Assembly: GCA_963730285.1 (NCBI GenBank)
Contig: CAVSQY010000014.1
Location: 11,992-75,991 of the forward strand
Direction of reading: 5' to 3'
Origin: an uncultured Actinomycetes bacterium
GTDB lineage: Bacteria; Actinomycetota; Acidimicrobiia; Spongiisociales; ZC4RG35
DNA: 64,000 nucleotides
A program made the translations under genes and the position numbers. Below, piece after piece: positions 17,092 through 48,900 of this stretch. Below the pieces are notes generated by a model. That model ran no database searches and was not told where the DNA came from. It saw only the letters and a list, made by a program, of their open reading frames with translations. Position 1 is the stretch's first letter, and every line of letters begins with the position of its first letter.

Positions 17092-18003
17092 TCAGGGCGT
17101 GTAGGTGAATTCGAAGTTTGCCTGCCTATCGAACTCGTCGGTGACGTGCACGACGAAGGTGGTGTCGGGCGGAGCCGTCTCGAAGAACACCTTCTTCTCC
17201 CACTGGCCGTTCGCGCCCACCTCCACGGACGTCGACCCGTACTCGGAGGTGATCTGCACCAATGAGCCGGGCTCCCCGGACCCGTAATAGACGTCGAAGG
17301 GCGGGGTCTCCGAACAAGAGCCATATGAGGCGTTGGCGCTGAACTCGGCCGGCTTCTTCTCGGTTGTGCTGGTCGTGGGCTCGGTGGTGGTGGTGGTCGT
17401 TGTCGGGATCGCGTAGTAGACGGTCACCGATGCCTCCGACTCGTTGCCTGCGACGTCCCTGGCAACGAACCGGGCGACGTTCTTTCCCTCAGCCAGCACG
17501 AGGACGATGTGCCATTCGCCCGATTTGGCGACGTCTGCCTCGTACTTGCCGGCGAAGACCCGGGCACCAGGCTCGGTCACCCCGGCGAACGTGATCTTCT
17601 TCTCGGCGAATTCGGCCCCGTTCTCGGGAGACGTGACCTCGAGAAGAGGGGGCTCGGTGTCGCGTGCCTCAGTGGTCGTAGGCGCGACCGGCACGACAAC
17701 TGCAGTGGTCGGCGGGGTCGGCTCGGTCGTGACCGCGTCGGCCTCTGTGGTCGTGGTGACGATGGTGGTGGTCGTGACAGCCGGGATGGTGGTCGTCGGA
17801 GGTGACGTGTCCATCACCAGGGCGACACCGACCGCGGAGCCGAGCATCAGCAAGGCGACCGCCCATGCCGGCCGCAGCACGAAGCCGAGCACCCGCCTGC
17901 GGGTGGTGGATCCGGGAGCCACCGATGACAACTCGGCTGTCTCTATGGCCGCCCTCAACTTGGCCGCAGCCTCGCGACCCCGGGCGTCAAGATCATTCCT
18001 CAT
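17092..18003 (-). CDS. Anti-sigma factor (single TM) with Thr/Pro-rich linker and a two-domain extracytoplasmic module
   Basis: Cytoplasmic MRNDLDARGREAAAKLRAAIETAEL, TM VLGFVLRPAWAVALLMLGSAVGVALV, then TTTTxPT linker and two domains (Ig-like; then ...YGSCSETPPFDVYYGSGEPGS...DEFDRQANFEFTYT). Start overlaps the ECF sigma stop by ~11 nt; ORF-track start 18048 is probably too early. Confidence 0.65.
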   Translation of the reverse strand: MRNDLDARGREAAAKLRAAIETAELSSVAPGSTTRRRVLGFVLRPAWAVALLMLGSAVGVALVMDTSPPTTTIPAVTTTTIVTTTTEADAVTTEPTPPTTAVVVPVAPTTTEARDTEPPLLEVTSPENGAEFAEKKITFAGVTEPGARVFAGKYEADVAKSGEWHIVLVLAEGKNVARFVARDVAGNESEASVTVYYAIPTTTTTTTEPTTSTTEKKPAEFSANASYGSCSETPPFDVYYGSGEPGSLVQITSEYGSTSVEVGANGQWEKKVFFETAPPDTTFVVHVTDEFDRQANFEFTYTP

Positions 18004-18538
18004 CGGCCACCTCCAGACCCAGCTTCTCGGCGAGAGCCCGACGCCCACGAAACAGATGCACCTTGGCCGTGGCCGGACTGCACTCGAGGATCTCGGCGAT
18101 CTCGGCCACGGGACGGTCCTCGACGTAGAAAAGCGCGATCGTCTGTGCCTGCCGGTCCGGGAGCTTTCGAACGGTCTTCCAGAACTCCTCGTCCTCCGGC
18201 TCGAGCTGGGGAAAGGGCTGGTGACGTTGCCCGGCCAGACGGGCCAGGGCCTTCGCCTCGGCCGCCTTGCGTCTAAATCCCGATATCGCCTTGTTCGCCA
18301 CGACTCGTCTCACCCATGCTCCCGGTTTGTCATACCCGCTGATCCGATCCCATCGCTGGTGGGCGGCGATGAAGGCCTCCTGTGCCAGGTCTTCGGCACC
18401 GAGACGACTACCCGAAAGGGCGTATGCCAATCCGACGACCTCCCTGAACTCCCTGCGATAGAAGCTCTCGAAAGACTCATGACTGGTGACCCGCTCCTCA
18501 TCTAGTTGTGCCGACTCGGGCTTGGTTTCTGCGGTCAC
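17993..18538 (-). CDS. ECF (sigma-70 family group IV) RNA polymerase sigma factor
   Basis: Region 2 (FESFYRREFREVVGLAYALSGSRLGAEDLAQEAFIAAHQRWDRI) and region 4 HTH (LPDRQAQTIALFYVEDRPVAEIAEILECSPATAKVHLFRGRRAL). Confidence 0.85.
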   Translation of the reverse strand: MTAETKPESAQLDEERVTSHESFESFYRREFREVVGLAYALSGSRLGAEDLAQEAFIAAHQRWDRISGYDKPGAWVRRVVANKAISGFRRKAAEAKALARLAGQRHQPFPQLEPEDEEFWKTVRKLPDRQAQTIALFYVEDRPVAEIAEILECSPATAKVHLFRGRRALAEKLGLEVADEE

Positions 18539-18565
18539 GACATCACTCGCATCGGCAGGCCCCGT

Positions 18566-18589
18566 GGTTTACCTGAGTCCTTGTAAACC
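18566..18589. promoter_or_regulatory. Inverted repeat GGTTTAC-N10-GTAAACC in the divergent region between the ECF sigma operon and the secreted paralogue gene
   Basis: Read directly: ggtttacctgagtccttgtaaacc, 28 nt upstream of the sigma start (- strand). Confidence 0.3.
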
Positions 18590-18658
18590 TCTGAGGCGGC
18601 TCATGCGTGTGACGTCGGGACGGGTTCGGGAGACGAGAGATCAATGAAGGAGTGTCAA

Positions 18659-19549
18659 ATGCGCAGATGGTTCGCATTGCTGGCAGGGGTGGCGGCGATC
18701 GCCGTGGCCGGGACCGCTCTGGCCCTCACCGGGCCCGACATGGTCAAAGACGAGAAGACCGCAACCGAAACGACCGTGAAGATCGAGGCGACCACCACCA
18801 CGTTCGAGAGACGTGTGATAGCGGAGCCTGTGGTCTCCGAAAACGTCTCCGAAATCGTGGAAAAGGACGAGGGGGCCGAGGAGGAGCCAAAGCAGTCCGA
18901 CCCGGTCGAGCAGGTCGAGCCACGTGACCACATGCCCTTCGAGATCGCCATCCTCTATCCCAAGCACGGCCAGGTCTTCGAGAAGGGCGAGGCCGTGTTC
19001 GAAGGCAGCAGCGCCCCCGGGGCCAGGGTCTACGTGGGCGACCGCCAGGCCGACGTGAACGACGACGGTGGCTGGCGCATAGTCCTCGACCTGCAGCCCG
19101 GTGAGAACCACATCACCGTGAAGGCAACGGACGAGTCCGGCAATCATGGCGCCGACTCGGTCGGCGTGACCTACAGAGCACCCGAGCCAAAGAAGGAAGA
19201 GCCCAAGAAGGAAGAGCCGAAGAAGGAAGAGCCGAAGAACGAAGAGCCCAAGAAGGAAGAGCCCAATCCAGAGCAGCCGCACGAGTGGGAGTTCTCAGCC
19301 CACCAGGTCTACGGCGAGTGCAGCGAGACCCCTCCCTTCGACGTGTTCTGGGGCACGGGCAAGCCCGGGTCCGTCATTCACGTGCAGTCCGAGTACGGCG
19401 GCGGAAGCCGTGAGGTCAACCAGAACGGAGAATGGGAGATCAAGGTGATCTTCGAGAACGCTCCCATCGGCCAGGCCTTTGCCGTCAAGGTGAGGGATGA
19501 GTTCGACCACCAGCAGATGTTCGAGTTCACCAGGATCGCAGCCGACTGA
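18659..19549 (+). CDS. Secreted protein paralogous to the extracytoplasmic two-domain module of the adjacent anti-sigma factor; contains a (E)PKKEE repeat linker
   Basis: Signal peptide MRRWFALLAGVAAIAVAGTALA (SD gaaggag 7 nt upstream of this ATG). Domain 1 ...FEKGEAVFEGSSAPGARVYVGDRQADVNDDGGWRIVLDLQPGENHITVKATDESGN vs anti-sigma ...FAEKKITFAGVTEPGARVFAGKYEADVAKSGEWHIVLVLAEGKNVARFVARDVAGN. Domain 2 YGECSETPPFDVFWGTGKPGSVIHVQSEYGGGSREVNQNGEWEIKVIFENAP...DEFDHQQMFEFT vs YGSCSETPPFDVYYGSGEPGSLVQITSEYGSTSVEVGANGQWEKKVFFETAP...DEFDRQANFEFT. Confidence 0.7.
   Translation: MRRWFALLAGVAAIAVAGTALALTGPDMVKDEKTATETTVKIEATTTTFERRVIAEPVVSENVSEIVEKDEGAEEEPKQSDPVEQVEPRDHMPFEIAILYPKHGQVFEKGEAVFEGSSAPGARVYVGDRQADVNDDGGWRIVLDLQPGENHITVKATDESGNHGADSVGVTYRAPEPKKEEPKKEEPKKEEPKNEEPKKEEPNPEQPHEWEFSAHQVYGECSETPPFDVFWGTGKPGSVIHVQSEYGGGSREVNQNGEWEIKVIFENAPIGQAFAVKVRDEFDHQQMFEFTRIAAD
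19192..19266 (+). repeat. Tandem 15-bp repeat (x5) encoding EPKKE linker
   Basis: ccaaagaaggaagagcccaagaaggaagagccgaagaaggaagagccgaagaacgaagagcccaagaaggaagagccc. Confidence 0.6.
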
Positions 19550-19615: not shown

Positions 19616-22399
19616 TCAGGACGAGCCGCCCGGATTCAGCACCTTCTGGAGTAGCTCGGGGATGTCCTGAAACACCAGGAAGTAGGCACTCGGGTCACAA
19701 TTGCAGGTCTGTGGCGGCGGCTTCTTCTGTGGCTCCTTCTTTTGACAGTCCGGCTCCTCGTTGACGTCGCGAACGTTCATCCGGAACCTCTCGCCATCGT
19801 GCACCGAGGTGGCCACCACCACGAAGTCCTCGTTGAAGGCCGTCTCCTCAGTGGGGAAGTCGGTCCATTCGCCGCTCGGGCTTCCCACCTTCCCCGGCCG
19901 ATACGACACTTGCACTTCCTCTCCCATCTCCCCGGTGACGCACGCATACTGACCGGAGGGGATGCTCACCTCCCAGCGAGCCGCCTGGAAGGCGTTGAGT
20001 TCCAGCTCGTAGTTGCCGGGGCCATCGAGCGATTTGGTGACCTTGGGCGGCTGATAGGCGATGAAGCCTCCTCCGGTGTCGGTGACGGCCACGTCGGTCA
20101 TGTGCTTGGAGAAGCTTTGATACATCCCGCTCATCTCATCTCGATTGGCCAGCTCGACCTGATCGAGTATCGGGTTGTTGCCACCGGGCAGGGCTTGGAT
20201 GATCTGGCCCAGCTCTTCATCGCCGAGAACGTTTACGACGTCCTGGAAGAAGATCCAGTTGTCGGCGCCCCTCTCGACCATTGGGCGTGAGGTCTCCTCC
20301 GCCCTCATGGCTGGGGCCAGTCTCCACTCCAGGTTCACGCCCGGATACACGACGTTGCTCATGTATTCGGCGAGGGCGTGGTTCCACCAGCGTCTTGCCA
20401 GATAGGTGGCCCCGGACTGACCGGGGAACAACAACGGGATGTAACAGTGGGCGATGTCGGCGGCCAGCTGCTGCTTGAAGTGGTCTGGGTTGCGCGGCTG
20501 CATCGGCTTGTTGATGAACACAAGGCAGACCGAGGGGTCGATGCGCTGCTCCACGAAGGTGTACGAGCCGCCGTGATGGGACAGCAACATCCAAATGCAC
20601 ACCGGCGGTGTGCCGTACTTGGCGATCGAGTCAGTCAATGCCTGCTGGGCCCAGAGCAGATGCGTCTCCCGACTCCAGCCATCTTCCTGACCTGCGATCG
20701 GAAACAGCACCGCACCTACCCATGCCCCGTATGTTCCGAGCTCGTAGCCGCTGGTGTCCCAGCCCGCCTGTTTCGGCTCGAGTCCGGCGCACTCGCCCGG
20801 CTCGATCGGCGGAGCGGAATAGTCGTGCGGCACGTCGTCATCGGGTGAGGCATAACCCCGGTCCTCACTGCCCTCTTGAAGCTGCTCCTCATCCGGGGGA
20901 GGCTCCTGCGCCAACAGGTCCGGGAAGATGAAGTCGCCCAGCGCAACGGTGAGCGACTTCGACGTCTCCGGGGGCGCCGTCCTGTTGAACCTCGGGGTCA
21001 GCAGGTCGAGAAGACGGGTCACCTCGTCCTTGGCCGGCCCCGGTTCGGCGGTGTCGAGGTACTCCTCCGCCAGGCTGATGATCCCCGTCCCGGAGTAGTC
21101 GAGCAGTTCGGGGTGTCGGAGCACGGCCCCGGAGTCGGCCTCGTCGGCGAACAGCTTCAGCGTGGCGATCAGCCCATCCTCGTGGGTCCACTCACCCGCC
21201 TCTTCCTTGGCCAGCAGGTTGTCGACATAGCCGAGGTTGGAGAGGTCCGGCTTTTCCTGCTGCACGATGATCGGGCCGCCCGGGATTCGGCCCAGTGCCT
21301 TGCTCGCCAGCTCCTTGGCGGTGTCGAACTGCTCATCAGGCCCCAGGTCGGGCAACGCCAGGACAATGCGGAACATGGCCCCACTCCATGCGACAGAGAT
21401 GACGTCTGCTTCGTGTGGGGAGGCGAACCCGCCTCCGGCCGGCACGTTCTCGAACCACATCGCAGAGTCGCCGACGCCATCCAACGGGACTCCGGGCACT
21501 CCATCGATGTTTGCGCCATCGCCGAAGTCTGATTCTGCAGCGGTCTGGACCTTGACGTATATCTCGGTGAGGATGAGCTTGGTGCACTCGAAGTCGCCGA
21601 ATTGGGTCAGATCGGCGACTTCGCCGAAGTTGTCCGACACGAAGACGTGATCCATCGCCGCGGCGCGGCCTTCCCGCTCCGGAGCGAGGAGGGCCTCGGC
21701 CTCCTGGTCGGTGACCAGGTCACACAAGTCGGCTTCGATCGGCTCTGGCGGTCCCAGCACCACCATGTCGATCGCTGACGCGGCGAGACCCTTGGCCAGG
21801 TCGAGGCGGTCCTGGTCACTGACGTCGGGTCGGCTTATCGAGAGCCTGATGAACAGATAGGCCTGTTCGGTCTCGGTGACGACACTCAGGGTTCCCATGT
21901 CTCCGCCACCGAACCACATCGCCACCTGGCCGACCCCGGACACGGGGACGCCGGCCACATCATCCAAAGTCGCTGCCGATCCGAAATCGTCGGGACTGCC
22001 GGGCTCGAGCTGGGCAGACCGCCCCTGCATGGCCGGCACATCATCGGGAGGTTGCCAGAGACAGCCCTCGTGTCCGGAGAACTGGATCAAGCCCACGTCA
22101 TCTGGAAGCCCGAGGGCGACGCCGACATCGTCGATCGAGATCAGGGTGCACCCGTCGAGCGGAGGGATTTGATGTCCTGTGTTGGCGGAGGTCGGGTCGG
22201 TTGATGGTGTCGGCCCCGAAGGGGAGGTTGTCGATGTGGCGGCCGCTTCCGGGCCTGAATCTCCCAGACGGCCGATGACCGCGACGATGACTGCGAGGGC
22301 AACGAGCCCGACGACCACCACCGGGAAGGGCTTGCCTTTCAGGAGATTCGTCAACGGGCTTCTGTCTTGTCGGCCTGGCTCCGGGCCTCCGGGGTCCAT
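19616..22399 (-). CDS. Large membrane-anchored extracytoplasmic protein (927 aa), two N-terminal Cys-containing DUF3558-like repeats plus a large uncharacterised C-terminal domain
   Basis: N-terminal TM (FPVVVVGLVALAVIVAVIG), Ser/Thr/Pro linker, two repeats each with C...C..W pattern (LDGCTLISIDDVGVALG...GCLWQ; ADLCDLVTDQEAEAL...FECTKL). C-terminus EEPDCQKKEPQKKPPPQTCNCD. Co-directional with, and 76 nt downstream of, the giant regulator gene. Confidence 0.65.
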   Translation of the reverse strand: MDPGGPEPGRQDRSPLTNLLKGKPFPVVVVGLVALAVIVAVIGRLGDSGPEAAATSTTSPSGPTPSTDPTSANTGHQIPPLDGCTLISIDDVGVALGLPDDVGLIQFSGHEGCLWQPPDDVPAMQGRSAQLEPGSPDDFGSAATLDDVAGVPVSGVGQVAMWFGGGDMGTLSVVTETEQAYLFIRLSISRPDVSDQDRLDLAKGLAASAIDMVVLGPPEPIEADLCDLVTDQEAEALLAPEREGRAAAMDHVFVSDNFGEVADLTQFGDFECTKLILTEIYVKVQTAAESDFGDGANIDGVPGVPLDGVGDSAMWFENVPAGGGFASPHEADVISVAWSGAMFRIVLALPDLGPDEQFDTAKELASKALGRIPGGPIIVQQEKPDLSNLGYVDNLLAKEEAGEWTHEDGLIATLKLFADEADSGAVLRHPELLDYSGTGIISLAEEYLDTAEPGPAKDEVTRLLDLLTPRFNRTAPPETSKSLTVALGDFIFPDLLAQEPPPDEEQLQEGSEDRGYASPDDDVPHDYSAPPIEPGECAGLEPKQAGWDTSGYELGTYGAWVGAVLFPIAGQEDGWSRETHLLWAQQALTDSIAKYGTPPVCIWMLLSHHGGSYTFVEQRIDPSVCLVFINKPMQPRNPDHFKQQLAADIAHCYIPLLFPGQSGATYLARRWWNHALAEYMSNVVYPGVNLEWRLAPAMRAEETSRPMVERGADNWIFFQDVVNVLGDEELGQIIQALPGGNNPILDQVELANRDEMSGMYQSFSKHMTDVAVTDTGGGFIAYQPPKVTKSLDGPGNYELELNAFQAARWEVSIPSGQYACVTGEMGEEVQVSYRPGKVGSPSGEWTDFPTEETAFNEDFVVVATSVHDGERFRMNVRDVNEEPDCQKKEPQKKPPPQTCNCDPSAYFLVFQDIPELLQKVLNPGGSS

Positions 22400-22474: not shown

Positions 22475-25400
22475 TCAACTCAAGGTGAGGTCGGCGAAAT
22501 TGGCCCAGGATTTGCCGAATTCCCACCAGCCCTCGACAAGGGGTCGCCTCAGGGAGGTGTTCCTCGTGTAGACCAATGGGATCACCGCAGCCAGCTCGGC
22601 CACGGCGAGTCGGTCTGCCTGGTGGAAGAGCCCGAGCCGGGTCCGCTCGTCGCGCTCCATTCGGGCCCGCTCGACCAGGTCGTCGAATGCCTCGCTGGAG
22701 AATCTCCCGGTGTTGTCTGCTCCCTCGGTGTGAAGCAGCAGCCTGAGGAAGTACTCGGGATCGGTGTATCCCGGATACCACCAGGTTGGAGCGATATCGA
22801 CATCTTCCCAAACCTCACGAAGTCTTTGGGAGGAGGGGCCCAGAGTCGTGGTCTCCACCTCGATGCCCAAGTGTCGGCGCCACTGGCCGGCGGCTCTCTC
22901 CACCAGAGTCGTATAGACGATGTGGGGTATATCGAAGGCTGCCATCCGGATCGGCGCATCCGGTCGTGCCTGGCCGACGAGCGACCGCGCCAGGTCGACG
23001 TCGAAGACCGGTGCGACGTCGGGCGTGTGCCCGGCAAGTGCCGGGGGGACCACGCCACCGGTGGCCGGGATCAGATGCTCGCCCAATCCTTCGCACAGGG
23101 CGGCTCGATCCAACGATTGGGCCAGGGCGAGGCGAAGACGGGGATCGGCCATGTTCTTTCGGCCATGGTTGAGAACGAAGTAGATGAGCCCTGCCGTCGG
23201 TTCCCGATTCACCAGATCGGTTGGGATCTGCTCCGACCCGGCGCCGTCCCATGGCCCGCTGATCCAGGCGAGGTCGTGTCGTTCGTCGAGAAAGCCCTCC
23301 ATGACCTCGTTGACGGGCGCGGTGTGCCACACCACGGTCTCCACGTTTCCGAGACGATGGCCGACATAGTCGGGTCGGCGATCCAGGACGACACGATTGG
23401 CCTTGTGCTCAGTCCGACGGAAGGCTCCGCTGACCACCTCGACATCGAGATCGCACCACCGCTCGGGTTCCGCTTCGATGACATGACGGGGCTGAGGGCC
23501 GCAGTCCGGCCGGTTCAACATGCCGAGGAAGTAAGGAGCGGGCGCATTCAATGAGAACTGAACGACCCTGTCGTCCAACGCTCTCACGCCGATCAGGTCG
23601 GGGTCACTGCTGCGACCAAGCGCATGGTCGGCGGCGCCTTCGAGGACATAGAGCATGGCCACGCTCACCCCGGGGGAGTCGGGGTCGAGGTTGCGTTTCA
23701 GACCGAACTCGACGTCGTGGGCGGTGAGTGGGGCCCCGTCAGACCATTTGAGCCCGTCACGGAGGGTGAACCGGTAGATGAGACCGTCGTCGGAGATCTC
23801 CCAACGCTCCGCCAGGGAGGGGACGATGGTGTCGTCGGGCCATCTCTCCACCAGACGATCGAAAAGCGCCATCTGCAGCTGGATGTCCTGGAGGGCGTAG
23901 GAGCGGACCGGGTCGGGGACATCGAAAAAGGCCGGACCGGCGAAAAGGAGCGTCTCGGTGGCCTCCTGGCTCGGTGCGGGGCTCCACAGCTCGAAGGCCC
24001 TCTGATAGGTGGCGTTCGCCTCGGCGAACCGGAGGGCGGTGTGATAGGCCAGCCCCAACTTGAACAGGACCAGCGTGGTGGTGGGCGTGTCTCCACTCCC
24101 CTCCAGGAGAGGGAGAAGCTGTCGATAGTGCTCGATTGCCTCCTCCAAGGCATGGCGTCCCCGAGCCAGATCGCCTGCCCGTAGCAACGCTGGGGCGGCC
24201 CGGTCGTCGACCCCTGCCGCCGTCCAATGCCGGGCTAGAAGCTCAACGACCTCTTCGTCATTCCCCTCGAATTGGCGTTCCAGCCACTCGGCGGCATGTC
24301 GGTGCAGGGCCCGTCTCCTACCCTCGGGAAGGGTGCGATAGGCGGCCTCACGGGTGAGGGCGTGCTTGAACAGATATTCCGCCTGCGGCCATCGGCGTGC
24401 CTCGACCAGCAGGTCAGACCTCAAGAGGTCCTGGACGGCGGGAAGGACCCCACCTCTCTCGTCGGCGATGCCCTGGAGCAGGGGGAGGCCGAAGCTCCGG
24501 CCCAGCACTGAGGCCGAGGTCAGCACCATGTGGGTGGAAGGATCGAGACGGTCGATGCGCGACTGGACCACCTTCTCCACCGTCTCAGGCACGGTCAGGG
24601 CAGCGTCACGGTCGAAGACCCATCCCGACCCCGAAGGGGTGAGGGCGCCCTCATCGATCAGCGACCCGATCAGCTCCTCGAGATAGAAGGGGTTCCCCTC
24701 GGAGAGGTCGAGGAGCCGCCCGGTGGTCTCCTCGGGGAGATCGGCGGTGCCGAGTAGCGAGGAAAGCATGGCTCGTTGGTCGGAGTCGCCGAGGGCGCCG
24801 AGTGTGATCTCGGTGATCAGATGGGGCACCCGATGCCGGGCCGCCTCTGCGATGCGCCACGACACGTGACCGGGAGACGGGCGGCTGCTGACCACATACA
24901 GGATGCGGTGACTCTCGGCGAGTGAGGTCAGATTCCCTAGAAGCTCCACCGAAGTCGGGTCGGCCCAGTGGGCGTCTTCGATAACCATCGCGGTGGGGGA
25001 CCTCTCTGAGATGGCAGTGAGCAGCTCTGCCACCACCTCGAACGTGCGGAATTGGATTGCTTCCGGCGCCAGCGATAGCCGGGTCTGCTGGTCGGGGGTC
25101 AGGCTGAGACCGAGAAGACGCGTCAGATAGGCATACATCGGCTCGGCCGGCTCGTCCAGCAGCTCTTCGAGGCGGTTGTGCAGCGTTCGCCGGGAGGGGA
25201 GGTCCTTTTCGTCGATGCCCAACCCGAGCCATGACCGGATCAGGTCGCGGAACGGCCAGTAGGGGGTGGCCTCACCGTAGGGATCACAGTGACCGAGCAG
25301 CCAGGTAAACCCGATCCCGGAAGGCGACCGGCGCAGCTCGGAGATGATCCGAGTCTTTCCCACGCCGGCGTCGCCACTGAGTACCAGGACTCCGCCGATG

Positions 25401-26740
25401 CCGCGTTCGAGCGATTCGAGCATGTGGCCCGCCTGGGCCATCTCTGACTCACGACCGACAAGTGGGGCGCGGAGACGTCTTCCCAGCCTTGCCTTGTCGG
25501 CGGTTCGGCGCACCGCCGTCGGCCGCCACATGACTCCCGATCCCGAAGAAGCGGACTCCTCCCAGTCGAAGGCGTCGATCATGAGACGACGGGTGTGGTC
25601 GTCGACCAGCACCGAATGGGGGCCTGGGTCGCTGAGCATTGTCTGAAGCGGTCCCTCTTCCATGCCGAAACCGGTCTCGAAGGGCAGTGTCACCGGCAGT
25701 GTGGACACGACACACCGGCCCTCACCGGTGGGCCCCAATGTCTCCCCGACGGCCAGCGCTGCCCGGATGGCTCGATAGGTGTCGTCCTCACGGGCGATGG
25801 GTGCCCCGAAGACGGCAAGGGCACGCGTCCCGTCTTCGTCGACGATCGTCCCTCCGAATCGGGCCAATGCCGAACGCGTCGCCTCTAGTGCGGCGGCCGA
25901 GCCGGTGGCCACCAAGAGCAGGGTGGCGAGCCGGTTCCCTGGGGGCAATGGCCGACCGATGACAGTTGCAGGACGGGCCTGCGGTCGATGTGACGGGGAT
26001 GGCGAGAGAGTCGGGTCCTGTGCCAGGATCCGATCGAGCAGGTTCTGGAGCTCGGGCCCAGGCTCGATCCCCAGTTCCTCGATGAGAAGCGCGCGCACGG
26101 TGTCGAAGGCCCGAAGTGCGTCGGCCTGCCGGCCCGAACGATAGAGCGCCAGCACGTATCGGCTCCACAAGTCCTCACGCAACGGGTGCTCTTCGAGCAG
26201 GGAGTGGAGGTCGACTGCGGCCTGGTCGTGACTGCCGGATCGGAGTTGGGCATCGGCCATGTCGACCTGGGCCTGAAGACGCACCGCCTCCAATCTGGCC
26301 TTGAGCGGGCGGACGACGTCGGCCTCGCGGGCGTCCACCAGGGGCTCGCCACGCCACCAGGAGAGGGCCTCACCGAGCCGACCGACCGTCGTCTCCGGGT
26401 CCTCCCACGTCGCCTCCCTGGCCTCGGTGACTGCCAGGACGAATCGGTGGGCGTCGACGTCTGATGTCTCGAGTGCCAGCTGGTAGCCGGGACCCTTGGT
26501 GGCGATCAACCCTTCGGGGAGCACCGAGCGCAGATGGTGGATGTAGGTCTGAAGTGCTTTGGCCGCCGTCGCCGGAGGGGTTTCGCCCCAAAGGCCGTCG
26601 ATGAGCCTGTCGCTGGTGATCAACCTTCCCACGTCGGCCGCCAGCAACGTCAGAAGGGCGCGCTCCATCGGACGACTGACCTCGATTCGGTGGCCATCGT
26701 CACTCAATTCCAGCGGTCCGAGCACCCCGACGAGCACCAC
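22475..26740 (-). CDS. 1421-aa multidomain one-component regulator: SARP-type winged-helix DNA-binding + BTAD / degenerate class-III cyclase-like domain / STAND (NB-ARC-like) P-loop ATPase / helical-TPR region / C-terminal solute-binding-protein family 5 (SBP_bac_5) domain
   Basis: aa 1-250: LGPLELSDDGHRIEVSRPMERALLTLLAADVGRLITSDRLIDGLWGE + BTAD (…YRSGRQADALRAFDTVRALLIEELGIEPGPELQNL). aa 270-390: cyclase-homology-like RLATLLLVATGSAAALEA...FGGTIVDEDGTRALAVFGAPIAREDDTYRAIRAAL (metal-binding Asp positions not conserved). Walker A VLVLSGDAGVGKT (aa ~451-463), Walker B MVIEDAHWAD, GNPFYLEEL motif. aa ~935-1421: ...LAERWEISDDGLIYRFTLRDGLKWSDGAPLTAHDVEFGL = canonical SBP_bac_5 signature (DppA/OppA/NikA family). 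No signal peptide, so the SBP domain is cytoplasmic. Confidence 0.85.
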   Translation of the reverse strand: MVLVGVLGPLELSDDGHRIEVSRPMERALLTLLAADVGRLITSDRLIDGLWGETPPATAAKALQTYIHHLRSVLPEGLIATKGPGYQLALETSDVDAHRFVLAVTEAREATWEDPETTVGRLGEALSWWRGEPLVDAREADVVRPLKARLEAVRLQAQVDMADAQLRSGSHDQAAVDLHSLLEEHPLREDLWSRYVLALYRSGRQADALRAFDTVRALLIEELGIEPGPELQNLLDRILAQDPTLSPSPSHRPQARPATVIGRPLPPGNRLATLLLVATGSAAALEATRSALARFGGTIVDEDGTRALAVFGAPIAREDDTYRAIRAALAVGETLGPTGEGRCVVSTLPVTLPFETGFGMEEGPLQTMLSDPGPHSVLVDDHTRRLMIDAFDWEESASSGSGVMWRPTAVRRTADKARLGRRLRAPLVGRESEMAQAGHMLESLERGIGGVLVLSGDAGVGKTRIISELRRSPSGIGFTWLLGHCDPYGEATPYWPFRDLIRSWLGLGIDEKDLPSRRTLHNRLEELLDEPAEPMYAYLTRLLGLSLTPDQQTRLSLAPEAIQFRTFEVVAELLTAISERSPTAMVIEDAHWADPTSVELLGNLTSLAESHRILYVVSSRPSPGHVSWRIAEAARHRVPHLITEITLGALGDSDQRAMLSSLLGTADLPEETTGRLLDLSEGNPFYLEELIGSLIDEGALTPSGSGWVFDRDAALTVPETVEKVVQSRIDRLDPSTHMVLTSASVLGRSFGLPLLQGIADERGGVLPAVQDLLRSDLLVEARRWPQAEYLFKHALTREAAYRTLPEGRRRALHRHAAEWLERQFEGNDEEVVELLARHWTAAGVDDRAAPALLRAGDLARGRHALEEAIEHYRQLLPLLEGSGDTPTTTLVLFKLGLAYHTALRFAEANATYQRAFELWSPAPSQEATETLLFAGPAFFDVPDPVRSYALQDIQLQMALFDRLVERWPDDTIVPSLAERWEISDDGLIYRFTLRDGLKWSDGAPLTAHDVEFGLKRNLDPDSPGVSVAMLYVLEGAADHALGRSSDPDLIGVRALDDRVVQFSLNAPAPYFLGMLNRPDCGPQPRHVIEAEPERWCDLDVEVVSGAFRRTEHKANRVVLDRRPDYVGHRLGNVETVVWHTAPVNEVMEGFLDERHDLAWISGPWDGAGSEQIPTDLVNREPTAGLIYFVLNHGRKNMADPRLRLALAQSLDRAALCEGLGEHLIPATGGVVPPALAGHTPDVAPVFDVDLARSLVGQARPDAPIRMAAFDIPHIVYTTLVERAAGQWRRHLGIEVETTTLGPSSQRLREVWEDVDIAPTWWYPGYTDPEYFLRLLLHTEGADNTGRFSSEAFDDLVERARMERDERTRLGLFHQADRLAVAELAAVIPLVYTRNTSLRRPLVEGWWEFGKSWANFADLTLS

Positions 26741-26779
26741 ACAACCGTACCGAGATCGATTGCGGCACAGGGCGCCTTC

Positions 26780-26799
26780 TTACCGGGCGTTTACCGGGC
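26780..26799. promoter_or_regulatory. Direct repeat TTACCGGGC x2 with 11-bp phasing in the divergent regulator/DUF4242 intergenic region (candidate SARP-type binding site)
   Basis: cTTACCGGGCgtTTACCGGGCt at 26779-26800; located 40 nt from the regulator start (26740, -) and 50 nt from the DUF4242 start (26850, +). Confidence 0.35.
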
Positions 26800-26849
26800 T
26801 AGGGCAATTTCGACGCCGCAAGGGTCAATCGATCTGAGGAGGTATCAGA

Positions 26850-27103
26850 TGCCCCTGTTCATGGATGTGCACCAGCAACTGCCCGACGGTGCGACCGAAT
26901 CGGACGTGGCCGAAGCTCACGCCGCCGATCTGGCCACTCAGGACAGGTTCGGAGTCCACTACCAGCGGTACTGGGTTGATGAGAAGGCGGGCAAGGTGTT
27001 CTGTCTGGTGGAGGCACCCGACGCCGATGCCGCGGTCGCGGTGCACCGCGAGGCGCACGGGTTGGTCGCCGACGAGATCTACCCCGTCAGCGAACACAGT
27101 TGA
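26850..27103 (+). CDS. DUF4242 family protein (SCO4226-like), paralogue of 2312..2563
   Basis: MPLFMDVHQQLPDGATESDVAEAHAADLATQDRFGVHYQRYWVDEKAGKVFCLVEAPDADAAVAVHREAHGLVADEIYPVSEHS; strong SD gaggagg upstream. Confidence 0.8.
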
Positions 27104-27117
27104 TAGGGGGAAGGGCG

Positions 27118-27672
27118 ATGCGAAAGACCACGATTGCCGTGATGACTGCCCTGGCCGTGATGCTGGGGGCGGTCCCGGCTCTGGCCCACGACCACGGCCA
27201 TGAAGAGTGGCGCGACGTGAGACACGATCTGCGCCAGGCCTCCAAGGTGACAGCCAAGTATCACCGGGTGTCGAAGGCGATCCGGGACGGGTTTGGCCCA
27301 TTCGCCATACCCGAAGAGGATGGGGGGACCCTTCTCACCATCCGCGGCGAGGCGATTACCTGTTTCGACAGTCCCACCGGGGGGATGGGCGTCCACTATG
27401 TCCGTCACATCGATGGCACCGTGGACCCGGCGGACCCCGAGGCTCTCGTCTATGAGGTGGGCCGGCATGGGCGGCTCCGGCTGGTGGCCTTGGAGTACAT
27501 CATCCCCGAGGAGTTCGTCGATCCGGCAGACCCGCCGATGCTCTTCGGTCGGACGATGCACCACCACTCGTATCTGCCCGTCTTCATCCTCCACGTGTGG
27601 TTGTGGAAATGGAACCCATCGGGCCTGTTCGCCGACTTCAACCCGAGAGTAAAGGACTGTCCCGCGGCCTGA
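27118..27672 (+). CDS. Secreted hypothetical protein (His-rich N-terminus after signal peptide)
   Basis: Signal peptide MRKTTIAVMTALAVMLGAVPALAHDHGHEEW; 15 nt after the DUF4242 stop, likely co-transcribed. Confidence 0.6.
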   Translation: MRKTTIAVMTALAVMLGAVPALAHDHGHEEWRDVRHDLRQASKVTAKYHRVSKAIRDGFGPFAIPEEDGGTLLTIRGEAITCFDSPTGGMGVHYVRHIDGTVDPADPEALVYEVGRHGRLRLVALEYIIPEEFVDPADPPMLFGRTMHHHSYLPVFILHVWLWKWNPSGLFADFNPRVKDCPAA

Positions 27673-42096: not shown

Positions 42097-44052
42097 CTAT
42101 CCGCCGCCGGTAGTCGTTGTAGTCGTCGGGACCGTGGTCGTGGTCGTCGTCGAAGTCGTCGTGGTCGGTGGCGCCTCGAACTTGCCCACGGTCACCGTGA
42201 CGATGTCACCGGGCACCAGGGTGGCCCCCACCTGAGGATTCTGGGAGACGATGGTCCCATCCTGACCGGGATCCGCCACGGGTTGGGTGGTGGTCGACAC
42301 CCGAAGCACCAGGCCGACGTCTTTGAGGATCGCATCCGCCTGGTCTGCAGTGAGGCCGGTCAATGATGGCACGTCCACCGGCTGGGGACCCCGGGAGACC
42401 ACGAGGAGGATGGTGTCGCCCGATTGGACCTCGAGCCCCGGCTCGGGATCGGTGCGGATGACCAGGCCGGTGTCGATCGTGCTCGAATACTCCTCGTTGA
42501 CGGTCACCTTCAGGCCAAGATCGGTGAGGGCCGCGGTGGCATCACGCTCGGTCTGCGTGGTGACATCGGGCAGCTCATAGACCTCGGGACCGGTCGACAC
42601 CACCAGGTTGACCGGGGCTTGTGACCCGATGCGAACCCCCGCACCCGGGTCCTGTTCGATGACCACGCCCTCGGCGAAGGTCGCGTCCGGGCGCTCGTCC
42701 ACCGTGCCCACGGTGAGGTTCGATTCCTCGAGGAGGCGGCGGGCGTTCTCCAACGTCTGGCCGATCAGCGGAGGCACCGGGAACTCCTCGGCACCCGTAG
42801 AGACATAGACCTGGATCACGGTGGCCTTGGCGGCCTGAGTCCCGAAGGGCGGGTTGGTCCGAGTCACATTCCCCACTTCTTCGGTGTCGGAGGACTCAAG
42901 GAACACGGTGACCTCGAAACCGTCCGCCTGGAGACGAGCCAGGGCGGCCTCTTGGGTCAGCCCGGTGACATTGGGGATTTCGATCAAATCGGACTCGTTG
43001 GTGCCGCCGGCCAGGCGGAAGAGGAAGAAGAGCAGGATTGCCAGGGCAATGAGAAGGCCAAATGCAGTCAGGATGAACGGAAGCTGAGACGCCGGTTCTT
43101 CCTCCAACTCGCGGTAGACCTCGTCGGGCGGCACCGTGGCAGGAGGCACCGGTGTCGTCATGAGCCTGGTCGAGCTGTCCCCGTTGCCCGGGACGCCGAC
43201 CGGAACTGCCAACGGCATCCCCACCGGCTCGCCCTTGAGCACGGTGAGCAGGTCAGAGCGCATCTCCGAGGCGGTCTGATAGCGAGCGACCGGGTCCTTT
43301 CGCATCGCCTTCGTAACCACCGCATCCAGCGACTGGGACACGTCGGAGTTCAGTGAGGAAGGGGTGGGTGCATCGGTGGAGACATGCTGGAAGGCAACCG
43401 ACATCGGGCTGTCACCGGTGTAGGGCGGGCGCCCGGTCAGCATCTCGTAGAGCACCACCCCGAGCGAGTAGACGTCGCTTCGCTCGTCGGCCGACGCCCC
43501 CTGGGCCTGCTCGGGACTGAAGTACGTGGCCGTGCCGATGACCGCACCGGTGCGGGTCAGCTCCTGGCTGTCGTCCCAGGCCCGGGCGATGCCGAAGTCG
43601 GTCACCTTCACCGTGCCGTCCTTTGCCAACAGGATGTTCCCCGGTTTGACGTCACGATGGACCAAACCGGCCTGGTGGGCAACCGAAAGGGCGGCGGCGA
43701 CTTCGGAGGCGATCTCGGTGGCACGTCGGGGAAGCAGGGCGCCCTCCGACTTGAGGACGTCGCGAAGCGAGCGACCGTCGACCAACTCCATCACGATGAA
43801 GTACGTGTTCTGGGCTTGGCCCCAGTCGTAGATGCCCACGATGTTGGGATGGCTCAGATTCGCCGCCGCCTGGGCCTCACGGCGGAATCTCTTCACGAAA
43901 GCCTCGTCGGCCGAGTATTGGGAGTGGAGGACCTTGATCGCCACTCTGCGGTTGAGCAGGGTGTCCACACCCTCATACACGTCGGCCATGCCACCTCGGG
44001 CGAGATGGGACGTGATCTGATAGCGATCTGTCAGTGTGGTCTGGGGTTCCAT
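42097..44052 (-). CDS. pknB: Ser/Thr protein kinase PknB with four C-terminal PASTA domains
   Basis: Kinase subdomains GGMADVYEG, VAIKVL, HRDVKPGNILL, DFGIA; TM; repeated PASTA units. ATG at 44052 preferred over the track's TTG at 44088. Confidence 0.9.
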   Translation of the reverse strand: MEPQTTLTDRYQITSHLARGGMADVYEGVDTLLNRRVAIKVLHSQYSADEAFVKRFRREAQAAANLSHPNIVGIYDWGQAQNTYFIVMELVDGRSLRDVLKSEGALLPRRATEIASEVAAALSVAHQAGLVHRDVKPGNILLAKDGTVKVTDFGIARAWDDSQELTRTGAVIGTATYFSPEQAQGASADERSDVYSLGVVLYEMLTGRPPYTGDSPMSVAFQHVSTDAPTPSSLNSDVSQSLDAVVTKAMRKDPVARYQTASEMRSDLLTVLKGEPVGMPLAVPVGVPGNGDSSTRLMTTPVPPATVPPDEVYRELEEEPASQLPFILTAFGLLIALAILLFFLFRLAGGTNESDLIEIPNVTGLTQEAALARLQADGFEVTVFLESSDTEEVGNVTRTNPPFGTQAAKATVIQVYVSTGAEEFPVPPLIGQTLENARRLLEESNLTVGTVDERPDATFAEGVVIEQDPGAGVRIGSQAPVNLVVSTGPEVYELPDVTTQTERDATAALTDLGLKVTVNEEYSSTIDTGLVIRTDPEPGLEVQSGDTILLVVSRGPQPVDVPSLTGLTADQADAILKDVGLVLRVSTTTQPVADPGQDGTIVSQNPQVGATLVPGDIVTVTVGKFEAPPTTTTSTTTTTTVPTTTTTTGGG

Positions 44053-44089
44053 AGGAGTCGACGGATTGTAGGAATGCTCCGGGTGCAAC

Positions 44090-45547
44090 TCACGGGGTTC
44101 TCTGCAGCCAGACCTGGATCAGCTGTGCTGCGATGGGCGCCGCCACCGACCCGCCCGAGGCCGATTCACCCAGGTCGCCACCCTCCTCGACCAGCACCGC
44201 CAGAGCGATCGAAGGATCTTCGACCGGGGCGAAGCCGATGAACCATGGGTTGGGAAGCCCGTTCGGGCCCGAGGACGTTCCGGTCTTCCCCGCCACCCGC
44301 ACGCCGGGCACCGCGGCACTCCGCCCGGTCCCTTCGGTGACTACCCGCTCCATCATCTGGGCGAGGACGTCGGATGTCGCCGGGTCCATGGCCCGGCCCA
44401 GCGGATTCGAGGTGAATGTCTTCACGGTGTTCCCATCGGCGTCGAATAGTCGATTGACCAGGTAGGGGGCGGGGGTTACTCCATGGTTCGCTACCGCCGC
44501 CGCCACCATTGCCATGTTTAACGGCGAAGCCCTGACATCGCGTTCCCCGATCCCGCTTTGGGCCAGGGCGGCCGGATCGTCGGCCAGCTCAGCCACCGGG
44601 TATGCCGCCTGGGGCACCTTCCAGGGAAAGTCCAGGTCGGTGTTGAAACCGAGGGCGTCGGCGGTGATCCCGATGTCCTCGGCGCCGAGCCGAACGGAGA
44701 GATCGGCGAACACCGTGTTGCAGGAGACCACGAACGCCTTGAGGAGCGTTATCGACTGGCCGTCGTTGCAGGATCGGCCGTTGGCATTGGATATGGTTGC
44801 CGTAGATCCGGGAAGGTCGAACGCGACCGGATCGGGGAATGTCGTCGACGGGTCGGCCTCGCCCGTGTCGAGGGCGGTGGCGGCCACAACCGTCTTGAAC
44901 GTCGATCCGGGCGGGTAGATCTCCTTCGTGGCACGGTCGTTGAGTGGTCGGGTCTCGTCGGCGAGCAGCCCTTCCCACATCGCGGCGGCATCGGCGCCGA
45001 GTAGCGACTCGGGGTCGAAGGACGGGGATGACACCGCGGCCAGGATGGCCCCGGTCCGCGGGTCGAGAGCCACCACCGCGCCTTTCTGACCACCCAGAGC
45101 CTCATAGGCGGCACGTTGCAACGGCGCATATACCGTCATCTCCAAGCTTTGAGGGCGAAGGTCGCGCCCCAGGATCACGGTGACCAGGTCGCTAATGGTC
45201 AGATCGCGTTTGGAGCGGAGCTCGCTCGAGTAGGCCAGCTCGAGACCGGACGATCCGACCAAGAAGGAGTTGTAGCCAACGATGTGGGCGAATGCCTCAC
45301 CTTCGGGGTATTCACGTTGGAACGACCGGGGATCGTCGGGGTCCTCCACCGAGCGCGCCACCACCGTCCCATCGGCGGTGACGATCAACCCTCTCTCCTT
45401 TCCCCGGTCGGCGAGGGCCGGTCGGGAGTTGCGAGGGTCGGCCTTGAGGGCGTCGGCATGGATCACCTGGATCCAGCTCACCGCCATGAGCAGGGCGAAG
45501 AACCCCACGAAGACCCCGAGGGAGAGACGCCGGATGGGGCCGTTCAT
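44090..45547 (-). CDS. pbpA: Penicillin-binding protein (transpeptidase), PbpA
   Basis: SxxK (PPGSTFKTV), SxN (SCN), KTG (GKTGTS). Overlaps the rodA stop (ATGA). Confidence 0.9.
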   Translation of the reverse strand: MNGPIRRLSLGVFVGFFALLMAVSWIQVIHADALKADPRNSRPALADRGKERGLIVTADGTVVARSVEDPDDPRSFQREYPEGEAFAHIVGYNSFLVGSSGLELAYSSELRSKRDLTISDLVTVILGRDLRPQSLEMTVYAPLQRAAYEALGGQKGAVVALDPRTGAILAAVSSPSFDPESLLGADAAAMWEGLLADETRPLNDRATKEIYPPGSTFKTVVAATALDTGEADPSTTFPDPVAFDLPGSTATISNANGRSCNDGQSITLLKAFVVSCNTVFADLSVRLGAEDIGITADALGFNTDLDFPWKVPQAAYPVAELADDPAALAQSGIGERDVRASPLNMAMVAAAVANHGVTPAPYLVNRLFDADGNTVKTFTSNPLGRAMDPATSDVLAQMMERVVTEGTGRSAAVPGVRVAGKTGTSSGPNGLPNPWFIGFAPVEDPSIALAVLVEEGGDLGESASGGSVAAPIAAQLIQVWLQRTP

Positions 45548-46851
45548 TGCGCTTCCTCATGGCTGATACGGAGGAGGAGGGCGACCAAGACCAGATTGCC
45601 GACCAGGGCCGATCCTCCATAGGACATGAACGGGAGGGTGATCCCGGTGAGCGGCACCAGACGGACGATGCCCCCGATGATGAGAAAGGTCTGGACTGCG
45701 AACACGAGAGTGAGACCGGCGGCGAGCAGCTTGCGGAAGGTGTCACGGCTTCTGAACGCGATACCGAGGCCGACGGTGATCACCAAGGCGAAAAGGGCCA
45801 GCACCGACACAGTGCCGGCAAATCCAAGCTCCTCACCGACCGCGGCGAAGATGAAGTCGGTGGAGGCATTGGGGATCAGATCGGGTCTTCCCAGCCCCGG
45901 CCCCGACCCGGAGAGCGATCCAGTGCCCATGGCGAATAGACCCTGGGCGATCTGATAGCCCTGGTCTTGGTAGTGATCGAAGGGGGCGAGCCAGGCGATG
46001 ATGCGCCGTTGCACGTGGTCGAAGGCGAGATATGAGGCCACCCCACCAATTGCCCCCAAGACTCCACCGGCCACCAGATAGCCCGCGGTGCCTGTGGCCG
46101 CGTAGATCAAGAGGACGAACCCGGCGAACAGGAGGATCGAGGCGCCGAGGTCTCGCTGTGAGATGAGTATCAGGACACTGACACCCCAGGTGAGCAGGAG
46201 TGGGATCAGCTGGCGCGGTTCAGGCAGGTGGATCGGGCCGATGGTCCGTCTCGCCTCGCGCAATGCCCGCTGGTGGTCCGCCAGGTAGGAGGCCACATAG
46301 GCGACCAGACCCAGCTTGGCCAGCTCCGCCGGTTGGAACTGGAGACTGGTGAACCCGGCGTCGAGAACGACCCAGAGCCGGGAGCCGTTGATCTCGAGCC
46401 CGCGGAGCGGGAAACCCCAATCGGAAGGAAGGTTCGGCATCAGGAGAAGGAGGGTGGAGATGAGCAATGTGATGTTGCGATAGGTGCGAAGGACGACGAT
46501 CGAGCTCCGGTTGAGCAGGGCCAGCACCAAGGCGGCGAGACCTGCCCCGATGAGGATCCACCACCTCTGGAGGGCTGCCCGGTCGGTCCCCAGGGCCAGA
46601 TCGAGACGATAGATCTCGAAGAATCCGAGGGCAGTGAGGGCGGCGATTGGAGCGACCAGCAATGGTGTCGCCCTCGGCGCAAAAGCTCTCACTGCCAGAT
46701 GAAGCCCACCAAAGGCGATGAGGAACACGAGGAAGGTGAGGGCGATCTGGGCGTCGATGTTGCGGTCCTGGGCGAAGTTGACCAGCGACAAGGCGAATGC
46801 GGCCAGCACCGAGGCCGCAACGATGGTGAGACCCTCGACGTTGCGAGTCAT
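45544..46851 (-). CDS. rodA: FtsW/RodA/SpoVE family peptidoglycan glycosyltransferase (RodA)
   Basis: ~10 TM; conserved RodA/FtsW C-terminal region PLTGITLPFMSYGGSA. Confidence 0.9.
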   Translation of the reverse strand: MTRNVEGLTIVAASVLAAFALSLVNFAQDRNIDAQIALTFLVFLIAFGGLHLAVRAFAPRATPLLVAPIAALTALGFFEIYRLDLALGTDRAALQRWWILIGAGLAALVLALLNRSSIVVLRTYRNITLLISTLLLLMPNLPSDWGFPLRGLEINGSRLWVVLDAGFTSLQFQPAELAKLGLVAYVASYLADHQRALREARRTIGPIHLPEPRQLIPLLLTWGVSVLILISQRDLGASILLFAGFVLLIYAATGTAGYLVAGGVLGAIGGVASYLAFDHVQRRIIAWLAPFDHYQDQGYQIAQGLFAMGTGSLSGSGPGLGRPDLIPNASTDFIFAAVGEELGFAGTVSVLALFALVITVGLGIAFRSRDTFRKLLAAGLTLVFAVQTFLIIGGIVRLVPLTGITLPFMSYGGSALVGNLVLVALLLRISHEEAQ

Positions 46852-46855
46852 GGGC

Positions 46856-47563: not shown

Positions 47564-47970
47564 CTGACCTCCATCACACTCTTACCCACCTGAATCGTGT
47601 CTCCTCGTCTCAGCCTGGTCGGTGCGGTGACCCTCCGCCCGTTGACGTATGTGCCGTTGGTGCTCCCGAGATCGTGGAGCACAATCCCGTCTTCCTGGGC
47701 CACCAGCCTCATGTGGAACTCAGAAGCGTAGGGGTCATCCAGGAGCACGTCGGCCTCGGCCGACCTTCCCAACACCACGACGTCCTCCACCTCCAGCGTC
47801 GTCCCCTGTTGGCTCTCCGACTTGATCATCACCACTTTCGTCCCTTCCTTGCGCTTACGTCGGAGAGAGATGCCGAGATGGGAGCCGATGGCCCGAGCCA
47901 CCTGCCACACGAAGAGATAGACAAGGCCCAGGAAGATGATGCGGAGGATCGCCAGGATGATGTCGGGCAC
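47560..47970 (-). CDS. fhaB: FHA-domain membrane protein (FhaB/FipA-like)
   Basis: N-terminal TM + FHA (VVLGRSAEADVLLDDPYASEFHMRL...GSTNGTYVNGRRV). Confidence 0.8.
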   Translation of the reverse strand: MPDIILAILRIIFLGLVYLFVWQVARAIGSHLGISLRRKRKEGTKVVMIKSESQQGTTLEVEDVVVLGRSAEADVLLDDPYASEFHMRLVAQEDGIVLHDLGSTNGTYVNGRRVTAPTRLRRGDTIQVGKSVMEVR

Positions 47971-47972
47971 CG

Positions 47973-48704: not shown

Positions 48705-48791
<87 letters not shown>

Positions 48792-48900
48792 GGGGTTTCG
48801 GCCGGGAAGGGCTTCTGCTCGCAGTCGAGAAACAGCCGATTGCAACCCGATTGCAACCCTTTCAATCGCACGACTGTTCGATCAGGCTCGTCTGGCCCCC

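Follow-up and report, generated by a model that had tools for sequence, protein, structure and literature searches.

Introduction

To our knowledge, the SARP boxes characterised so far come almost exclusively from the antibiotic gene clusters of Streptomyces. Promoters targeted by SARPs carry direct repeats placed 11 or 22 bp apart, the 3' repeat lying 8 bp from the -10 element (PMC10936776). In the afsS promoter, a 22-bp afs box made up of two 11-bp repeats extends from -40 to -19, overlapping a poor -35 element, and is combined with a suboptimal -10 element, CACTGT (PMC10936776); with a -35/-10 spacer of 20 bp (PMC10936776, PMC11301090), this spacing puts the afsS -10 element at -12 to -7, 6 bp after the box. 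Two SARP protomers of AfsR sit there side by side, one on each repeat, and contact the first 8 bp of each (PMC10936776), the repeat itself being quoted as CGTT(T/C)ATCGNN (PMC10972967). The operators of a second group, the SARP-LAL regulators, consist of two to three heptamers with 4-bp spacers, those of SanG and PolR being two heptamers that overlap the -35 element (PMC5930380, PMC10972967).

The locus described here lies in a 64,000-nucleotide stretch of DNA, the whole of which was analysed and is referred to below as the window. A short direct repeat between a regulator gene and a divergent gene for a DUF4242 protein resembles the afs box of S. coelicolor afsS, as bound by AfsR (structures 8hvr, 8jke and 8k60), in comprising two 11-bp repeats, in its length of 22 bp and in its placement over the -35 position. 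Both AfsR and the window regulator combine a SARP module with an ATPase and TPRs. However, the ATPase of the window regulator is AAA_16/LAL-like, with a cyclase-like region before it and an SBP_bac_5 domain after it, whereas AfsR has an NB-ARC-type NOD and TPRs with no further domain; equally, the host is Acidimicrobiia-like, and the target is a DUF4242 operon rather than a regulator of secondary metabolism.

The SARP-LAL regulators PimR, SanG, PolR and FilR, like the window regulator, have a divergently transcribed target gene. Judged from its domains, the window regulator also has the PimR-type architecture, in which a SARP module is joined to a cyclase-homology/LAL ATPase half without a LuxR HTH, although its SBP_bac_5 domain (residues 971-1341) falls outside the architecture described for that group. 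By way of contrast, the SARP-LAL heptamer is CGGCAAG rather than the TTTACCG of the window, the main PimR operator lies clear of the -35 element, and SARP-LAL regulators lie in antibiotic gene clusters, none described in the literature surveyed having a C-terminal SBP_bac_5 domain. The analysis set out below suggests that the repeat is probably a SARP box standing in for the -35 element in the promoter of the DUF4242 operon.

The regulator and its gene

The coordinates of the relevant genes, protein domains and predicted promoter elements are collected in Table 1. That the very large protein encoded on the minus strand is a regulator of the SARP type, as originally predicted, was borne out by Pfam, which recognised a Trans_reg_C plus BTAD module; with an OmpR-type winged HTH at the N-terminus followed by BTAD, the protein is by its domain order a member of the SARP family. 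Its N-terminal 245 aa align to the structures of EmbR (1e-38) and AfsR (8hvr, 6e-37). It can be ruled out as an ortholog of AfsR, both by its score against the NCBIfam AfsR equivalog NF053617 (152 bits versus a cut-off of 1430, over residues 5-266 only) and by its additional cyclase-like and SBP_bac_5 regions. Of the residues through which AfsR contacts bases, T88 is conserved in the regulator family, while R92 is replaced by His inside an invariant HHLR motif, so that a specificity identical to that of AfsR is not expected. The recognition helix, QTYIHHLR, is nearly invariant in the family, yet positions 4-5 of the DNA unit described below vary by subgroup (TT vs CA).

Table 1. Features of the regulator-DUF4242 locus; positions are those of the window unless given as regulator residues
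Feature	Position	Strand	Remarks
SARP-type regulator ORF	22475..26740	-	GTG start, 1421 codons (1420-1421 aa)
Trans_reg_C PF00486 (OmpR-type wHTH)	regulator residues 24-88		Pfam, above cut-off
BTAD PF03704	regulator residues 95-239		Pfam, above cut-off
AAA_16 ATPase	regulator residues 426-614		Pfam
TPR_12	regulator residues 849-918		Pfam
SBP_bac_5, full-length domain	regulator residues 971-1341, C-terminal		Pfam
Candidate regulator -10, TACGGT	26744..26749	-	6 nt upstream of GTG 26737
Upstream 11-nt unit (DRup), TTCTTACCGGG	26777..26787	+	-10-anchored register; occupies the -35 position
Downstream 11-nt unit (DRdown), CGTTTACCGGG	26788..26798	+	-10-anchored register
Direct repeat, TTACCGGGC-gt-TTACCGGGC	26780-26788 and 26791-26799	+	exact 9-mers, period 11 start-to-start
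Candidate DUF4242 operon -10, CAATTT	26805..26810	+	same offset in 9/9 loci
RBS of DUF4242 gene, GGAGG	26838..26842	+	GGAGG/AGGAGG 6-8 nt before ATG in all loci
SCO4226-like/DUF4242 gene	26849..27103	+	84 aa; first gene of presumed target operon
Exported-protein gene	27118..27672	+	~184 aa; second gene of presumed operon

The stretch between the SARP module and AAA_16 is degenerate and cyclase-like. The NCBIfam model TIGR03903 (kinase/cyclase fusion) matches residues 293-877, far below its equivalog cut-off, and PF00211 is on record for the regulator homologs P0015 and P0019. A GerE domain (LuxR HTH) was looked for in the window regulator and not found. At the C-terminus, NCBIfam models of the OppA/DppA/NikA type gave matches far below their equivalog cut-offs, the best score being that of the OppA/peptide models. 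No membrane helix was detected in the regulator, in which the maximum Kyte-Doolittle mean over 19 residues is 1.19, and the SBP_bac_5 domain is therefore placed in the cytoplasm. A literature search returned no mention of a fusion of BTAD with SBP_bac_5.

The start of the regulator gene was considered in the light of its orthologs. A second in-frame GTG at 26737 suits a leaderless geometry better than the GTG at 26740, and in 10 of the 12 loci tabulated a TANNNT hexamer on the regulator strand is followed 6-7 nt later by a start codon, a pattern that makes the regulator mRNA apparently leaderless. The public annotation (P0001, 1397 aa) begins 24 codons into the ORF, which would cut the winged helix short; comparison with orthologous sequences supports the longer version.

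A protein search identified a small family with the same SARP-to-SBP architecture (47-81% identity), together with a far larger family that lacks the SARP head and begins at the cyclase-like region. The headless relatives (74 loci, L009-L082) comprise a cyclase-like + AAA_16 + TPR + SBP_bac_5 body without a DNA-binding head and come from Thermoleophilia, Gaiellaceae and other Actinomycetota; their matches start at query residues ~240-450 and mostly cover ~291-1420.

The divergent operon

The first gene of the presumed target operon encodes a small protein assigned to DUF4242 (Pfam PF14026, 9e-23; PDB 4oi3, 6e-14), which scored 80.8 against NCBIfam NF033706, below the cut-off of 125. The second gene follows with a stated stop/start overlap (coordinates as listed: end 27103, start 27118) and was present after the DUF4242 gene in every locus with enough flank. 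Its product has a signal-peptide-like N-terminus followed by HDHGHEEW, and contains the invariant residues Cys82, His93, His159 and Cys181. Neither Pfam nor NCBIfam provided a match, and although the AlphaFold model was confident, a PDB search with it yielded no matching fold. Homologs of the exported protein form 197 clusters, apparently all of them Acidimicrobiia-like.

SCO4226 binds nickel weakly (Kd about 10 µM) through Ni-1 ligands Asp43, Ser46 and His76, and nickel raises the expression of its gene 2-3-fold (PMC4186839). Alignment of the window DUF4242 protein to 4oi3 placed Asp, Ala and Tyr at the Ni-1 positions, so that one of three ligands is kept. The fold family of SCO4226 is common to both proteins, but a nickel site in the window protein is not supported by this alignment. 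A nickel reading of the locus, which would couple a NikA-like SBP domain to a nickel-responsive neighbour, was considered and found to be unsupported, given both the single retained ligand and the better agreement of the SBP domain with OppA/peptide models. A metal theme was nevertheless kept in view because of the HDHGH motif in the exported protein, and either a metal or a peptide is plausible, if speculative, as the signal to which the system responds.

The direct repeat and its conservation

The sequence at the site is cTTACCGGGCgtTTACCGGGCt on the plus strand, where the order is GGCGCCTTC, then TTACCGGGC-GT-TTACCGGGC, then TAGGGCAATTTCG. The repeat reported in the original prediction at 26779-26800 is real, though the coordinates were one base off, with one extra flanking base on each side. 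The regulator start at 26740 agreed with the earlier description, while the divergent spacer, given there as 109 bp, proved to be 108 bp (26741-26848), since the DUF4242 ATG is at 26849 and not 26850. The site contains at least two direct repeats with an 11-bp period on one helix face, as SARP boxes do at a period of 11 (or 22) bp.

Dinucleotide shuffles of the window gave an expectation of 0.33 exact runs of at least 9 at period 11 per 64 kb, and of 1.1 when periods 10-12 were pooled, so that a repeat of this kind is unremarkable on the scale of the window. The repeat had been described as the only clear one-turn-phased repeat in the window, which is wrong: a longer exact period-11 repeat lies at 48836-48859. 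For the 108-bp spacer specifically, the chance expectation falls to about 6e-4, and a search of the window for the 20-nt repeat pattern, allowing up to 3 mismatches, hits this site alone (0.01 expected). Taken alone, the repeat is only weakly significant in statistical terms; it becomes convincing when related loci are compared.

Fifteen orthologous loci with a SARP head and a regulator at least 47% identical (L001-L008, L083-L086 and L115-L117) were available for this comparison, the nearest relatives of the locus being Acidimicrobiia metagenome-assembled genomes. A divergent DUF4242 gene lies directly upstream of the regulator in all 15. It was found in none of the 74 loci of SARP-less paralogs, where none occurs within 3 kb, in none of seven more distant SARP loci (L087-L093), and not at L118, whose regulator has the same architecture at 34% identity.

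When the ortholog spacers were right-aligned on the DUF4242 ATG, both copies of TTACCGGGC proved to be kept in the three orthologs with 78-81% regulator identity (L002-L004), where the 2-nt spacer is TT or CT in place of the GT of the window and the flanks diverge. At 63-68% identity (L083 and L001), TTACCGAGC-gt-TGACCGGGC occupies the equivalent place. Orthologs at 50-56% mostly have three to four related units in 11-bp phase, examples being L006 (CTTCAACCGCC GTCCAATCACC GTTCAACGCCG GCACAACCAGC) and L005 (GTTCTACCCGG GTTCAGCCGTG GTCCAGCCGGC), and the most distant ortholog, L115 (47%), has one good unit only. Conservation in orthologous intergenic regions, the absence of which would have spoken against the earlier reading of the repeat, was thus found at each of these levels down to 50-56%. 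Overall, two to four direct repeats in 11-bp phase occur on the coding strand of DUF4242 in most of the 15 loci. Autocorrelation identified lag 11 as the strongest in seven of nine representative loci (p<=0.045 in six of them), the periodicity being weak or absent in L008/L086, L001 and L085 (p 0.29-0.69).

Geometry of the box and the predicted promoter

An anchor search was conducted in which the xANNNT hexamer located 25-60 nt upstream of the ATG was chosen so as to maximise the similarity of phased 11-mers ending 6 nt before it. The same architecture was returned in 11 of 12 loci, the alternative register obtained for L006 being a consequence of the four units present there. When nine non-redundant loci were aligned without gaps, with the -10 hexamer as anchor, the information peaks fell at unit positions 2-9; the pooled family consensus for the promoter-proximal unit is G-T-T-Y-W-A-C-C-G-G-G, in which positions 1, 10 and 11 are uninformative. 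The 6-nt gap between box and hexamer is poorly conserved in sequence. Hexamers in the nine loci are CAATTT, CAGATT, CACGAT, CACGGT, GAGGGT, CATCGT and CAACGT, with A2 and T6 in all nine, as the search required, and C1, which was not imposed, in eight. Since the 6-bp gap follows from the definition of the unit, the independent features are the conserved unit positions, the 8-bp distance from heptamer to -10 and the hexamer C1.

In the window, the conserved heptamer TTTACCG (26790-26796, unit positions 3-9) ends 8 bp before the predicted -10 hexamer, and a heptamer lies 8 bp before an xANNNT hexamer in all the non-redundant loci, the hexamer being a predicted -10 whose A2 and T6 were set by the search. 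From these positions, transcription of the DUF4242 operon is predicted to start near 26817-26818, giving a 5' UTR of about 32 nt. A scan of 26500-27200 for promoters of the E. coli type and for terminators returned nothing, such a scan being uninformative for weak actinobacterial promoters.

Loci outside the derivation of the model fitted it unadjusted: L116 has four phased units, the gap GGGCGG and the hexamer CAGTGT, and L117 has four units, GCCAGG and CAGGGT. In L115 a CACGAT hexamer stands at the expected distance from the single good unit. A composite pattern, in which two units agreeing with the consensus at 12 or more of 14 positions are followed by N6 and NANNNT, produced seven matches on both strands of the 1.79 Mb of collected loci, all of them upstream of DUF4242 genes (including that of L116) and none elsewhere.

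Agreement of the predicted promoter with the geometry of afsS is to about 1 bp, the conserved unit positions being 2-9 here and the first 8 of 11 for AfsR. The downstream unit CGTTTACCGGG differs from the AfsR repeat at one of nine specified positions. Equally, CACTGT of afsS and CAATTT of the window, the latter a predicted element, are both weak -10 sequences of the CANNNT type with a heptamer 8 bp away.

Assignment of the box to a protein and a promoter

Four further Acidimicrobiia loci have the DUF4242 and exported-protein gene pair beside a different neighbour, namely an AAA_16-TPR-GerE (LAL-type) regulator in L120 and L122, a small GerE protein in L121 and no regulator in L123. The DUF4242 upstream regions of these loci (five regions in four loci) exhibited neither a lag-11 signal (p 0.12-0.78) nor a match to the unit consensus, and instead contain a repeated motif of the form AAATAGGGGTG...ATTTAGGGGTG. 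A cognate SARP protein is accordingly encoded near the site and co-occurs with it in 15 of 15 loci, the site being absent from the four SARP-less ones. That the repeats are missing where the SARP regulator is replaced argues that they go with the SARP head and not with a global regulator of the operon, and the different motif beside the GerE regulators suggests that regulator head and operator were exchanged together. In L120 (1110-1240), L123 (1100-1230) and L121 (1105-1235), the motif takes the form AAATAGGGGTG ... ATTTAGGGGTG ... CCCCGATG plus a TACGTT hexamer, and is a candidate operator of the LuxR type.

These loci provide the principal evidence against the main rival explanation, in which another protein of the OmpR/PhoB family (PhoP-, GlnR- or MtrA-like) binds the units, while the SARP regulator acts elsewhere or competes for the site as AfsR and PhoP do at afsS. 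Since the unit resembles 11-nt repeats of the PHO/GlnR type, such a protein could bind it. Streptomyces PHO boxes and GlnR boxes, like the window site, are built of 11-nt direct-repeat units with a GTTCACC-like core, at least two being required, and often lie over the -35 element; GlnR sites are 22 nt long and consist of two 11-nt repeats, and some sites are common to AfsR and PhoP (PMC6988585). A single mismatch separates the window unit, cGTTTACCggg, from GTTCACC, while the sequence in distant orthologs is GTTCAAC or GTTCAGC. However, the proteins that bind PHO/GlnR boxes are phosphorylated response regulators with global regulons, whereas the window site goes with a local SARP regulator: the repeats are seen beside the SARP-fused regulator alone and are gone beside LAL-type, small GerE-type or no regulator, neither the 64-kb window nor the 1.79 Mb of loci yielded another paired site, the pairing of regulator and target gene is strictly conserved (15/15), and the genes linked to the site are not those of the PHO regulon. 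Binding by a protein of this kind is consequently considered unlikely.

The position of the box also invites the suggestion that it serves mainly for autoregulation through the divergent, leaderless promoter of the regulator. Its centre is ~50 bp upstream of the presumed regulator start at 26737, a plausible position for an upstream activator, and some SARPs, for example PieR, bind their own promoters (PMC10972967). Between loci, however, the distance from the box to the regulator -10 ranges over 24-48 bp, so that helical phase is not kept, while the spacing between the box and the DUF4242 hexamer does not change, and every locus has its units in the orientation of the DUF4242 strand. It is this combination that assigns the box to the DUF4242 promoter, and makes autoregulation as the main function quite improbable. 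The sequence comparison gives no sign of an effect on the promoter of the regulator itself, although one is possible. Of the two roles originally envisaged, the geometry thus bears out the link to the DUF4242 promoter, and not the one to autoregulation of the regulator gene.

Finally, it is very improbable that the repeat is a functionless duplication arising by chance or slippage, or belongs to a hairpin element in RNA or DNA: for all the ~0.33 repeats expected per 64 kb and the second example at 48836, it is kept with substitutions down to 63% regulator identity while its flanks diverge, and related phased units in most of the more distant orthologs largely exclude chance, and although a perfect 10-nt inverted repeat (26753-26762 / 26826-26835), reached by 2 of 500 shuffles, brackets the site, this is lost in the closest orthologs, the predicted transcript starts downstream of its left arm, and the lack of an Rfam match in 26500-27100 at E<=1 makes an RNA element unlikely.

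Proposed mechanism

On the preferred reading, that of a SARP box in place of a -35 element, a mechanism may be put forward by analogy with AfsR at the afsS promoter. The box would comprise 22 bp (26777-26798), made up of a pair of 11-nt direct-repeat units read on the coding strand of DUF4242, to which two SARP domains (wHTH + BTAD) of the divergent regulator would bind side by side on one helix face, one per unit. Bound at the -35 position, these domains would recruit RNA polymerase to the weak -10 element CAATTT, with a start near 26817, and the resultant transcript would span both the DUF4242 gene and the downstream gene for the exported His-rich protein. Activation would presumably be gated by the ATPase/TPR module and by a ligand on the cytoplasmic SBP_bac_5 domain. 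The repeat with its conservation, phase, orientation and spacing, the domain make-up of the regulator and the linkage of the genes are read directly from the sequences; we infer the binding itself, where the -10 element lies and transcription starts, that the effect is activation and not repression, and what signal gates it. The original prediction of a candidate operator for the SARP regulator at an activated DUF4242 promoter is well supported by the conservation of the repeat, its SARP-type distance to the predicted -10 and its absence beside non-SARP regulators.

As a cis-element the box is of a kind already known; it is the cytoplasmic SBP_bac_5 domain of the regulator and the lineage that are unusual. 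A broader and more tentative proposal, which we hold as possible rather than probable, is that a SARP + ATPase + TPR activator obtained its ligand sensor by taking up a cytoplasmic ABC-type solute-binding domain (SBP_bac_5, of the peptide, nickel or metal-chelate class), giving a one-component sensor in Acidimicrobiia. This system would control a conserved cassette of DUF4242 and exported His-rich protein genes through the box, head and operator having been swapped as a unit relative to sister lineages, in which AAA_16-TPR-GerE regulators go with a different operator.

For a SARP subfamily of uncultured Acidimicrobiia that had not been characterised, the site provides a precise predicted operator and promoter, in the form of a 22-bp box together with a -10 element and transcription start that are both predicted, and argues for the occurrence beyond Streptomyces of the AfsR-type geometry in which the box replaces the -35 element. 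The DUF4242 promoter may equally serve as a read-out for whatever the cytoplasmic solute-binding domain senses, and two families annotated without a function, DUF4242 and the exported His-rich protein, would thereby be linked to the signal of the regulator.

Other features of the window

The inverted repeat around the box reads AGATCGATTGCGGC / GCCGCAA-gggt-CAATCGATCT in its extended form (26753-26766 / 26815-26835), and was rejected as a conserved hairpin or second operator because the closest orthologs do not share it. L083 alone has an inverted repeat in a comparable position, a perfect 10-nt one of different sequence, CCGTGCCCGC / GCGGGCACGG, which brackets its own box and overlaps its own -10 hexamer.

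The second period-11 direct repeat is an exact CCGATTGCAAC x2.2 (48836-48859). It lies upstream of the minus-strand gene fhaA (47973-48623), and 45 nt separate it from tRNA-Leu(CAG) (48705-48791), downstream of which it is placed. The repeat is bracketed by CAGTCG...CGACTG, and an inverted partial copy of it, TTTCAATCG, comes next. A link between this repeat and the left arm of the inverted repeat through their common CGATTGC was discounted, the heptamer occurring 12 times in the window against 11.3 expected, which is no enrichment.

Downstream of the regulator, a 927-aa ORF (19616-22399, minus strand) gave a weak DUF3558 match only. Two ORFs with Glucodextran_B/Big-like domains occupy 17092-19549, and one of them (18644-19549) overlaps a tandem repeat of 15-bp period at ~19190-19260, the sense-strand reading of which is rich in AAG, GAA and GAG.

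Pfam identified FhaA- and FhaB-like FHA proteins at 47560-48623. We infer that 42097-48623 is a conserved actinobacterial cell-division/signalling cluster, in which the long ORFs upstream of the Fha genes are probably the PstP, RodA, PbpA, PknA and PknB genes. Together with the adjoining tRNA-Leu, and judged by gene order as in mycobacteria, this cluster suggests that the window lies near the chromosomal origin region.
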